Assembly: GCF_056712565.1 (NCBI RefSeq)
Contig: NZ_CM160072.1
Reading direction: 5' to 3' (one strand)
DNA: 64,000 bases
Below the pieces are notes generated by a model, which searched no databases, had not been told where the DNA came from, and saw only the letters and a list, made by a program, of their open reading frames with translations. Each line of letters opens with the position of its first letter. Position 1 is the stretch's first letter. The position numbers and the translations under genes were made by a program. Shown here in pieces: positions 3,105 through 62,379 of the stretch.

Positions 3105-3241
3105 TAATTCTGATTCCTCAACTTATTCGCCAGCCTTCAAAGGGGCAATATTGCCGGAGATACTACATTATCTGCCGCGTCGAGTCACAGGAGATCAGCG
3201 TGAATAGCGCCGCCGGACGTGCTCCGGCGGCGATAAAGGCA

Positions 3242-5440: not shown

Positions 5441-5492
5441 TTTGCCTCCCTGCGAAATTATTCCCGGGAACGCGTCCCGGGAGCGGTAACAA

Positions 5493-22706: not shown

Positions 22707-24188
22707 ATGAAGAAATTGCTCCCCATTCTTATCGGCCTGAGCCTCTCTGGGTTCAGTTCGTTGAGCCAGGCCGAGAACCTGATGCAAGTTTATCAGCAAG
22801 CACGCCTTAGTAACCCGGAATTGCGTAAGTCTGCCGCCGATCGTGATGCTGCCTTTGAAAAAATTAATGAAGCGCGCAGTCCATTACTGCCACAACTAGG
22901 TTTAGGTGCAGATTACACCTATAGCAACGGCTACCGCGACGCGAACGGCATCAACTCTAACGCGACCAGTGCGTCCCTGCAGTTAACTCAATCCATTTTT
23001 GATATGTCGAAATGGCGTGCGTTAACGCTGCAGGAAAAAGCAGCTGGGATTCAGGACGTCACGTATCAGACCGATCAACAAACCTTGATCCTCAACACCG
23101 CGACCGCTTATTTCAACGTGTTGAATGCGATTGACGTTCTTTCCTATACACAGGCGCAAAAAGAAGCGATCTACCGTCAATTAGATCAAACCACCCAACG
23201 TTTTAACGTGGGCCTGGTAGCGATCACCGACGTGCAGAACGCCCGCGCACAGTACGATACCGTGCTGGCGAACGAAGTGACCGCACGTAATAACCTTGAT
23301 AACGCGGTAGAGCAGCTGCGCCAGATCACCGGTAACTACTATCCGGAACTGGCGGCGCTGAATGTCGAAAACTTTAAAACCGACAAACCACAGCCGGTTA
23401 ACACGCTGCTGAAAGAAGCCGAAAAACGTAACCTGTCGTTGTTACAGGCGCGCTTGAGCCAGGACCTGGCGCGCGAGCAAATTCGCCAGGCGCAGGACGG
23501 TCACTTACCGACTCTGGATTTGACGGCCTCTACCGGAATTTCTGACACCTCTTACAGCGGTTCAAAAACCCGTGGTGCCGCTGGTACCCAGTATGACGAT
23601 AGCAATATGGGCCAGAACAAAGTTGGCCTGAGCTTCTCGCTGCCGATTTATCAGGGCGGAATGGTTAACTCGCAGGTGAAACAGGCCCAGTACAACTTTG
23701 TTGGTGCCAGCGAGCAACTGGAAAGCGCGCATCGTAGCGTCGTGCAAACCGTACGTTCCTCCTTCAACAACATTAATGCTTCTATCAGTAGCATTAACGC
23801 CTACAAACAAGCCGTAGTTTCCGCTCAAAGCTCATTAGACGCGATGGAAGCGGGTTACTCGGTTGGTACGCGTACCATTGTTGATGTGTTGGATGCGACC
23901 ACCACGCTGTACAACGCTAAGCAAGAGCTGGCAAATGCGCGTTATAACTACCTGATTAACCAGTTGAATATTAAGTCAGCTCTGGGTACGTTGAACGAGC
24001 AGGATCTGCTGGCACTGAACAATGCGCTGAGCAAACCGGTTTCCACTAATCCGGAAAACGTTGCCCCGCAAACGCCGGAACAGAATGCTATTGCTGATGG
24101 TTATGCGCCTGATAGCCCGGCACCCGTCGTTCAGCAAACATCCGCACGCACTACCACCAGTAACGGTCATAACCCTTTCCGTAACTGA
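22707..24188 (+). CDS. tolC: outer membrane efflux channel TolC
   Basis: ORF 22668-24188; start placed at MKKLLPILIGLSLSGFSSLSQA, giving 493 aa. Confidence 0.95.
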   Translation: MKKLLPILIGLSLSGFSSLSQAENLMQVYQQARLSNPELRKSAADRDAAFEKINEARSPLLPQLGLGADYTYSNGYRDANGINSNATSASLQLTQSIFDMSKWRALTLQEKAAGIQDVTYQTDQQTLILNTATAYFNVLNAIDVLSYTQAQKEAIYRQLDQTTQRFNVGLVAITDVQNARAQYDTVLANEVTARNNLDNAVEQLRQITGNYYPELAALNVENFKTDKPQPVNTLLKEAEKRNLSLLQARLSQDLAREQIRQAQDGHLPTLDLTASTGISDTSYSGSKTRGAAGTQYDDSNMGQNKVGLSFSLPIYQGGMVNSQVKQAQYNFVGASEQLESAHRSVVQTVRSSFNNINASISSINAYKQAVVSAQSSLDAMEAGYSVGTRTIVDVLDATTTLYNAKQELANARYNYLINQLNIKSALGTLNEQDLLALNNALSKPVSTNPENVAPQTPEQNAIADGYAPDSPAPVVQQTSARTTTSNGHNPFRN

Positions 24189-24335
24189 CGACGACGACGG
24201 GGCTTCGGCCCCGTCTGAACGTAAGGCAACGTAAAGATACGGGTTATCTGCCGCATTCTTCCCCCTTCTCGCTTCAATTTCGACCAGCCATCCTCTATTC
24301 TGATGGGTATTTACCACTGGTCCCGGAAGACAAAA

Positions 24336-25007
24336 ATGAAACGGACAAAATCCATACGCCACGCATCGTTCCGCAAAAACTGGAGCGCACGCCATCTGAC
24401 ACCAGTCGCTCTCGCGGTTGCCACTGTTTTTATGCTGGCTGGCTGTGAAAAGAGTGATGAAACAGTGTCTCTCTATCAAAATGCTGACGACTGTTCAGCT
24501 GCAAACCCAGGCAAAAGCGCCGAATGTACCACCGCGTACAACAATGCGCTGAAAGAAGCCGAACGTACTGCGCCGAAATACGCCACCCGTGAAGACTGTG
24601 TTGCTGAATTTGGTGAAGGTCAGTGCCAGCAGGCACCAGCCCAGGCTGGCATGGCACCAGAAAACCAGGCGCAGGCCCAGCAATCCAGCGGGAGTTTCTG
24701 GATGCCGCTGATGGCCGGTTACATGATGGGACGTCTGATGGGCGGCGGCGCGGGATTTGCACAGCAGCCGCTGTTCTCCTCGAAAAACCCGGCCAGCCCG
24801 GCTTACGGTAAATATACCGACGCGACCGGTAAAAACTATGGCGCAGCCCAGCCAGGCCGCACCATGACCGTACCGAAGACGGCAATGGCACCAAAACCGG
24901 CGACCACTACTACTGTTACCCGTGGCGGTTTTGGTGAATCTGTTGCCAAACAAAGCACTATGCAGCGTAGCGCAACCGGCACCTCTTCTCGTTCAATGGG
25001 TGGCTGA
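24336..25007 (+). CDS. ygiB: DUF1190 lipoprotein-like protein YgiB
   Basis: ORF 24303-25007; start placed at MKRTKSI..., 223 aa; ...MLAGC lipobox-like. Confidence 0.85.
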
Positions 25008-26173: not shown

Positions 26174-26657
26174 TACAGCTTAATATTGCCCCGATAAGCG
26201 GGGCAATCTCTTATAATCCACCATTCATAACTCCCATCAATATATAAACACATACATATCCAACCTTTATTTAACATTAATACTCAATTTAATGTTAAAT
26301 CGTCATATGCAAGCGATATTGTAATTAAAGTAAGTGAATACATCACAACATAACTATTTGATATTATTTAAATACTTTACTTTTATCTCACCAGATTTAA
26401 ATTTAATAATTAAAAAACAATGTTGCAGGGATCACACTACACAGTATTGAACATTGTGATTGATATATTGCCCCCCTACTATCCATTAAACATAAATATT
26501 TGTTTCACCGAATAACAACATATTTAAAAGAAACACAAAAGCATTCTCACTCTTTATTGAATTAATATTTATATTCACGTAACGAATTTATTAGCACCCT
26601 CTCAACAGTCGATATTCATCATTATTATATATTTGCGTTATATAAGGAGATATATCC

Positions 26658-37353: not shown

Positions 37354-37406
37354 ACAGCAAAATGCCGGGAACACCCCGGCATTTTCATATTTAGTATTTC
37401 ACGTCA

Positions 37407-56149: not shown

Positions 56150-56191
56150 GTGAGGACGGTGCCGGAAATTGCTCTCCGGCACCTAATAGTT

Positions 56192-61603: not shown

Positions 61604-61630
61604 AACGCCACCTTTTCGGTGGCGTTTTTT
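61604..61630. terminator. rho-independent terminator after rpoD (bidirectional with mug)
   Basis: acgccacc-ttttc-ggtggcgt followed by ttttta; preceded by REP-like palindrome at about 61568-61600. Confidence 0.7.
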
Positions 61631-62343: not shown

Positions 62344-62379
62344 AAAGGCTGACGAGAAATCGTCAGCCTTTTTCTTTTT
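62344..62379. terminator. bidirectional terminator between ileX and yqjH
   Basis: aaaggctgacga-gaaa-tcgtcagccttt followed by ttcttttt. Confidence 0.7.

Follow-up and report, generated by a model that had tools for sequence, protein, structure and literature searches.

A U-less hairpin between tolC and ygiB in Escherichia coli: a probable protector of the tolC mRNA 3' end at a partial, Rho-dependent terminator

The tolC-ygiB spacer and its hairpin

The window referred to below is the whole stretch of DNA that was analysed, 64,000 nucleotides of contig NZ_CM160072.1 (NCBI RefSeq assembly GCF_056712565.1), and positions are counted from its first letter. It contains tolC, which encodes the outer-membrane exit duct that the multidrug efflux pumps of E. 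coli have in common, followed by ygiB and ygiC; these gene names, given from the sequence alone in the original prediction, agree with the RefSeq annotation of the identical E. coli locus. The features considered here are the following.

22707-24188, + strand: tolC CDS (open reading frame list; RefSeq annotation of the identical E. coli locus)
24186-24188, + strand: tolC stop codon, TGA
24187-24198, + strand: (GAC)4 run, read from the sequence, reaching from the stop codon across the 7-nt spacer into the hairpin 5' arm
24189-24195, + strand: 7-nt spacer from the tolC stop to the hairpin
24196-24215, + strand: hairpin, proposed 3'-exonuclease barrier that would define the stable tolC mRNA 3' end
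24196-24203, + strand: 5' arm, GACGGGGC, from the sequence
24204-24207, + strand: loop, TTCG, from the sequence
24208-24215, + strand: 3' arm, GCCCCGTC, from the sequence
24220, + strand: steady-state RNA 3' end (K-12 position 3179628, Adams et al. 2021), 5 nt 3' of the stem
24221-24235, + strand: GTAAG-gcaac-GTAAA direct repeat matching the CpxR consensus, probable activator site of the ygiB promoter
24250-24299, + strand: C-rich, G-poor tract, with 17-18 C as against 3-5 G in each 40 nt; candidate site for Rho loading (rut) on the RNA of read-through transcripts
24273-24301, + strand: putative ygiB promoter, with TTCAAT at 24273-24278, a 17-nt spacer and TATTCT at 24296-24301, in a block conserved across genera
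24336-25007, + strand: ygiB CDS (DUF1190 lipoprotein; open reading frame list, RefSeq), ATG at 24336, the first downstream gene

The 5' arm of the hairpin begins 8 nt past the tolC stop codon. The element, GACGGGGC-TTCG-GCCCCGTC, consists of eight perfect pairs, seven of them G-C, closed by a C(UUCG)G tetraloop, exactly at the coordinates at which a perfect 8-bp GC-rich stem with a UUCG loop had been predicted. In its 33-nt context the predicted fold reaches -18.0 kcal/mol as compared to -10.3 ± 2.4 kcal/mol for dinucleotide shuffles (z = -3.2), a stability equalled by 1 of 200 shuffles, and the 45 nt that lead up to the mapped 3' end at 24220 fold at -19.1 kcal/mol (z = -2.8). Conversely, the stability of the spacer taken as a whole (24180-24340) is unremarkable (z = -0.6), so that the hairpin alone stands out and a larger structured RNA is absent. 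Past the stem, the nucleotides 24216-24240 (UGAACGUAAGGCAACGUAAAGAUAC) are rich in A and mostly unpaired in the predicted centroid fold.

The absence of a T-run after the stem, also claimed from the letters alone, was borne out: the 8 nt 3' of the stem (TGAACGTA) contain only two T, and the hairpin was called neither by the terminator scan nor by a re-implementation of its rule. A T-run is likewise absent on the minus strand. The stem itself, with 8 bp and a 4-nt loop, falls within the range of intrinsic terminators (about 5-14 bp, short loop), and like these it is a GC-rich hairpin lying soon after a stop codon. It differs from them in the absence of the U-tract that normally occupies some 7-8 nt 3' of the stem, here TGAACGTA with a terminator score of 1.32; this U-less arrangement (UCUGAACG) is found in both E. 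coli and Citrobacter.

Within E. coli, the sequence of 24100-24420 is shared, at 99% identity or more, by 5356 of 5426 complete genomes. The hairpin 20-mer occurs at one place per genome in 5424 of these 5426, and the 30-mer 24191-24220 is identical in 5231 of the 5424. The 20-mer is unchanged in five other aligned E. coli sequences, namely K-12 and four strains chosen among the minority variants, and the polymorphisms seen in this sample, which is not a census, are located at 24189, 24193 and 24217, all outside the hairpin. Two of these sites, 24189 and 24193, fall within the (GAC)4 run. Position 24189 is T in K-12 and in most E. coli, and C in the window. With T, positions 24188-24190 read ATG, overlapping the tolC stop and opening the old 'ygiA' reading frame through the hairpin and the CpxR-like box, while the window and just over 900 other genomes have ACG. 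The old K-12 reading frame ygiA was rejected as a gene, since its ATG needs the T that the window does not have; its annotation was dropped in NC_000913.3, and it is very likely a phantom gene. In NZ_CP025268.1, a derivative of K-12 MG1655, the match starts only at 24202, the 3' end of tolC and the hairpin 5' arm being gone; the gap is presumably an engineered tolC deletion with its junction inside the hairpin.

The hairpin shares with REP and BIME elements the character of a stable stem-loop located between the genes of an operon. Those elements, for example between malE and malF, are intercistronic mRNA stabilisers that block 3' exonucleases, with the upstream gene expressed above the downstream one. 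The tolC hairpin differs from them in being only 20 nt long, in not matching the REP consensus and in being present at a single place in 5424 of 5426 E. coli genomes instead of in multiple copies, and the idea of a repeated element was ruled out on this last ground. The exact 20-mer, ACGGGGCTTCGGCCCCGTCT, was also encountered on 49 plasmid records, including plasmid p2 of E. coli EC06 (L084, positions 701-720), the one inspected, where it lies in the 5' part of a gene for a phospholipase D family nuclease, beside virB11; this plasmid occurrence is probably a coincidence (BLAST E = 2). At a permissive threshold, Rfam returned for 23800-24700 only three chance-level matches to eukaryotic families (E at least 1.1). 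The U-tail expected of an Hfq-type sRNA derived from a 3' UTR is absent, and the literature search found no record of such an sRNA.

RNA 3' ends and Rho dependence at the hairpin

Published data bear directly on the fate of transcripts at this site. Adams et al. (2021, eLife, PMC7815308) mapped RNA 3' ends of E. coli K-12 by Term-seq, and their supplementary files 1 and 3 contain a tolC 3' end of the 'primary' category at 3179628 (+), which was found in all three conditions used (LB at OD 0.4, LB at OD 2.0 and M63). K-12 coordinates were transferred to the window by anchoring on the end of tolC at 3179596 in NC_000913.3; across the hairpin region the two sequences show a single difference, at 24189, and the sequence printed for this 3' end (...GACGGGGCTTCGGCCCCGTCTGAA[C]) places it at 24220. 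No further curated 3' end is present in these data between 3179500 and 3180199 of K-12. The supplements of a SMRT-Cappable-seq study mention neither tolC nor ygiB. The intrinsic-terminator score at the tolC 3' end is 1.32, where values above the cut-off of 3.0 suggest intrinsic termination (PMC7815308).

The same study assigns to 3179628 a Rho score of 2.16 and flags it 'Yes' as a region of Rho termination, the regional maximum being 2.30 (p = 1.6e-7) at 3179617, inside the hairpin; with a cut-off of 2 in that study, the site at 2.2-2.3 is barely over the threshold. The underlying DirectRNA-seq counts are 204 reads upstream and 107 downstream without bicyclomycin, a drop of about 50%, and 161 upstream and 194 downstream with the drug (PMC7815308). 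Recomputing (194/161)/(107/204) gives 2.297, the published Rho score, which confirms the column order of the read counts. The downstream/upstream ratio thus rises from 0.52 to 1.20 with bicyclomycin, a figure that comes from 800-nt windows and therefore does not locate the release sites and also counts transcripts from the ygiB promoter; since that promoter lies within the windows, its induction by bicyclomycin would mimic read-through. With this reservation, the loss of the coverage drop in bicyclomycin suggests that the partial stop is due to Rho, at work on the 3' side of the hairpin, and that the hairpin itself is not its cause. Rho regions less than 50 nt past a gene are few in that dataset (PMC7815308), which counts against a role of Rho.

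The original prediction held the hairpin to be more likely a stabilising or partially attenuating structure than a full terminator, and named complete termination at the hairpin, or an absence of 3' ends there, as observations that would speak against it. The published data show neither, and so support the prediction: Term-seq places a 3' end 5 nt past the stem, and coverage drops by only about 50%. Its further proposal, that the hairpin lies within a tolC-ygiBC transcript, stands in so far as about half of the transcription reads through, but is incomplete since ygiB very probably has a CpxR-type promoter of its own as well. The involvement of Rho and the separate ygiB promoter are the parts that were missing from this first reading.

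These features recall a class of 3' ends described by Dar and Sorek (2018, PMC6061677), who found that Rho-dependent transcripts of E. coli end, at steady state, right after stable stem-loops. Such stem-loops resemble terminator hairpins except that they have neither a U-tract nor an upstream A-tract; the RNA downstream of them is enriched in C over G, and the diffuse tails released by Rho are trimmed back to the stem by PNPase and RNase II (PMC6061677). The tolC stem-loop has the energy and size of a terminator hairpin, likewise has neither the U-rich tract nor the upstream A-tract, and displays a sharp steady-state 3' end a few nucleotides past the stem (stem +5), a read-through that seems sensitive to bicyclomycin, and a C-rich, G-poor RNA on its 3' side. 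It departs from the class in that termination is partial and feeds a downstream operon, in that the presumed rut region doubles as the promoter of the next gene, and in that trimming by PNPase and RNase II is here only presumed. On these grounds, the hairpin probably protects the 3' end of the tolC mRNA at a terminator that is partial and Rho-dependent.

Two other accounts of the 3' end have to be weighed against the Rho-dependent one. According to the first, the hairpin is a decayed but still working intrinsic terminator, which releases some polymerases at the U-poor UCUGAAC, perhaps with the aid of NusA, NusG or Rho, so that 24220 would be the true termination point. The sharpness of this 3' end and its identity in all growth conditions would fit, and mixed or transitional cases between intrinsic and Rho-dependent termination were explicitly proposed by Dar and Sorek (PMC6061677). 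However, hairpin-driven release by E. coli RNA polymerase requires a U-rich tract (review knowledge quoted in PMC6061677) and the 8 nt past the stem contain only two U; the published score of 1.32 is below 3.0, and bicyclomycin removes the coverage drop. In addition, the 3' end lies only 5 nt past the stem. Intrinsic release usually takes place 7-9 nt past the stem. This account, to which the comparison of species described below lends some weight, seems unlikely.

The second account does without termination in the spacer: an endonuclease such as RNase E would cleave the tolC-ygiBC transcript in the A-rich stretch past the hairpin, the product would then be trimmed, and the hairpin would serve as a stabiliser only. 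It is consistent with the A-rich, mostly unpaired character predicted for 24216-24240, with the description of tolC-ygiBC as an operon in the literature and with the fact that Adams et al. (PMC7815308) ascribe most 3' ends that are neither intrinsic nor Rho-dependent to processing. The shift of the downstream/upstream ratio with bicyclomycin is, however, not expected from processing alone, and the literature search found no cleavage data for the tolC-ygiB site. As processing is compatible with the Rho-type explanation, it could coexist with it but would not replace it, and as the sole origin of the 3' end it is rather improbable.

The distal spacer, the putative ygiB promoter and a model for tolC transcripts

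In the C-rich, G-poor tract (24250-24299), C outnumbers G by a factor of 3.6-5.7, and the excess of C over G in the 70 nt past the CpxR-like box ranks at the 97th percentile of the window. The tract overlaps the conserved elements of the putative ygiB promoter. The excess downstream is not stronger in species that have no U-tract at this site (medians of 0.26 against 0.29, p = 0.13), and since species with a U-tract are equally C-rich, the tract does not constitute specific evidence for a rut site.

Between the hairpin and this tract, starting 6 nt past the stem, lies the direct repeat GTAAG-N5-GTAAA (24221-24235), to be compared with the CpxR consensus GTAAA-N(4-8)-GTAAA. It is found in 80 of 80 Enterobacteriaceae species, where it ends approximately 85-111 nt 5' of the ygiB start codon. 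The box is followed by a strongly conserved block, GCTTCAATTTCGACCAGCCATCCTCTATTCTGA, that was delimited in a 21-species alignment and reads as a TTCAAT-17 nt-TATTCT promoter, an assignment of the hexamers made from sequence; a sigma-70 consensus scan calls no promoter in the tolC-ygiB spacer. For Citrobacter rodentium, published work describes a CpxR site in the tolC-ygiB spacer and a ygiB-lux fusion whose expression depends on Cpx. Judging by these motifs, E. coli ygiBC probably has its own Cpx-activated promoter, as in C. rodentium. Transcription downstream of the hairpin is then not solely read-through from tolC, since this promoter lies past the hairpin.

The perfect 8-4-8 inverted repeat located 6 bp upstream of the CpxR-like box might also act at the DNA level, as a palindromic binding site for a dimeric regulator of the ygiB promoter, instead of as an RNA element. 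That an RNA 3' end maps at the hairpin argues against such an operator. In other genera, moreover, the hairpins are unrelated whereas the box and the promoter block are invariant, the distance between hairpin and box is variable, and the compensatory changes within a clade (see below) preserve RNA pairing and not a recognition sequence. It is very improbable that the repeat acts in this way.

The preferred reading, a protective stem-loop at a partial, Rho-dependent terminator, can be cast as the following sequence of events. RNA polymerase coming from the tolC promoters would pass the hairpin without stopping, because the U-tract is absent. The ribosome would leave at the UGA codon, so that the 147-nt spacer is naked and untranslated, and Rho would load on its C-rich, G-poor RNA, at about 24250-24299, to free roughly half of the polymerases at scattered positions farther downstream. 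The 3'-to-5' exonucleases PNPase and RNase II would then cut the tails back to the C(UUCG)G-capped stem, so that the tolC mRNA, monocistronic and protected, ends uniformly at 24220. The other half, approximately, of the polymerases would continue into ygiBC and produce a tolC-ygiBC co-transcript, such as has been reported in the literature, and ygiBC would additionally be driven by its own CpxR-type promoter, which starts 6 nt past the stem. The element would in this manner partly uncouple the tolC regulon from the Cpx-controlled ygiBC. Two observations are consistent with a partial uncoupling: overproduction of BaeR raises tolC only (1.9-fold), ygiB and ygiC being unchanged, and the tolC and ygiB reporters of C. 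rodentium respond oppositely to Cpx.

At the distal end of the spacer, an ACA triplet begins 6 nt 5' of the ygiB ATG (24330-24338), and a published table of the MazF regulon lists ygiB with the value 6, which would mean a nearly leaderless ygiB mRNA under MazF stress.

Hairpins at the orthologous site in 80 Enterobacteriaceae species and elsewhere in the window

Scanning species-representative genomes with TolC gave 80 Enterobacteriaceae loci, in all of which tolC is followed by ygiB. In all 80, the spacer from the tolC stop to the box, whose length varies from 32 to 521 nt, contains a strong hairpin (-12.7 to -29 kcal/mol). When compared to dinucleotide shuffles, 77 of 79 spacers were more stable than at least 95 of 100 (median z of -4.2). 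Hairpin and box are separated by about 0 to 49 nt, apart from one outlier at 388 nt. A hairpin is therefore under selection across these 80 species, while its sequence changes between genera and the box and the promoter block remain invariant.

The identical 20-mer is common to Escherichia and most Citrobacter. In Buttiauxella the hairpin is CGGGGGCATG-ACAA-CATGCCCCCG, Klebsiella and Raoultella have a longer palindrome (GCGCTTCGCTTA...), and in Enterobacter, Lelliottia and Salmonella enterica subsp. arizonae REP-like palindromes occupy the spacer between tolC and the box. Covariation was assessed solely on an ungapped alignment of Buttiauxella and Dryocola; a cross-genus MAFFT alignment lost the register of the stem and was left out. 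Changes on both sides of the stem (compensatory changes) affect three of the ten pairs, pairing holds in 95% of the cells as opposed to 40-64% after displacing the partner by 1-3 columns, and none of 500 shuffles matched the observed covariation score.

In Enterobacter hormaechei (L043) the spacer from stop to box measures 521 nt, versus 32-107 nt in the other species; this length points to inserted DNA, possibly repeat elements, separating tolC from the ygiB promoter.

By the rule of the scan tool, 24 of the 80 sites are U-tract terminators and the other 56 are not. The U-tract is present in Kluyvera, Cedecea, Kosakonia, Phytobacter and Pseudocitrobacter, in which the orthologous site is a textbook intrinsic terminator. 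In Kosakonia and Phytobacter, the hairpin ACGGGGGC-N5-GCCCCCGT continues as GCCCCCGT-TTTTAC-GTAAGG, where E. coli has GCCCCGTC-TGAAC-GTAAGG, both hairpins standing in the same register with respect to the box. In E. coli and Citrobacter the element accordingly looks like an intrinsic terminator without its U-tract, a switch of the sort foreseen by Dar and Sorek (PMC6061677). The canonical sites speak for a decayed intrinsic terminator in E. coli, where the coverage drop nevertheless appears Rho-dependent.

A tentative hypothesis, which I would hold as possible but somewhat doubtful, is that the sites represent one orthologous terminator that switches between intrinsic and Rho-dependent modes while pinned against the invariant CpxR box. 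The U-tract would have been lost, or never acquired, in Escherichia, Citrobacter, Buttiauxella and Klebsiella, and REP-like palindromes would have replaced the hairpin in Enterobacter and S. enterica subsp. arizonae. If so, the coupling of tolC to ygiBC would be tuned in each lineage by a few bases past the stem, as would the cross-talk between mar/sox/rob-type and Cpx regulons.

The tolC hairpin is an ordinary element of a known kind that does not challenge current understanding: the 3' end, the low intrinsic score and the Rho dependence are already contained in a published dataset, the class is well described, and the series of hairpins across species is a small addition to it. Its significance is modest. 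The way in which the tolC mRNA ends and spills into ygiBC does bear on the reading of tolC deletions, of reporter fusions and of the tolC cassette in wide use for selection. For teaching, the site is a neat case of a U-less hairpin marking a Rho-type 3' end, and the cross-species series offers a ready test of whether terminators change type by gain or loss of a U-tract.

Of perfect GC-rich hairpins with stems of 8 bp or more, the window as a whole has eight distinct ones (nine overlapping calls), as compared to 1.3 ± 1.1 in shuffles. This roughly sixfold excess indicates that such hairpins are a selected class in the window. A second perfect 8-bp hairpin, TTGCCCCGATAAGCGGGGCAA at 26186-26206, lies 13 nt past the ygiC stop and is followed by TCTCTTATAA, in which the T-run is not clean; judged by this sequence it may be another U-poor 3'-end hairpin. 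An aryl-sulfate sulfotransferase gene is located downstream of it, where K-12 differs in sequence. Further hairpins of this perfect, GC-rich kind are found at 3209-3231, 5462-5482, 37362-37382 and 56159-56182, and the hairpins at 61605-61625 and 62347-62368 are followed by TTTTT runs and resemble canonical terminators.
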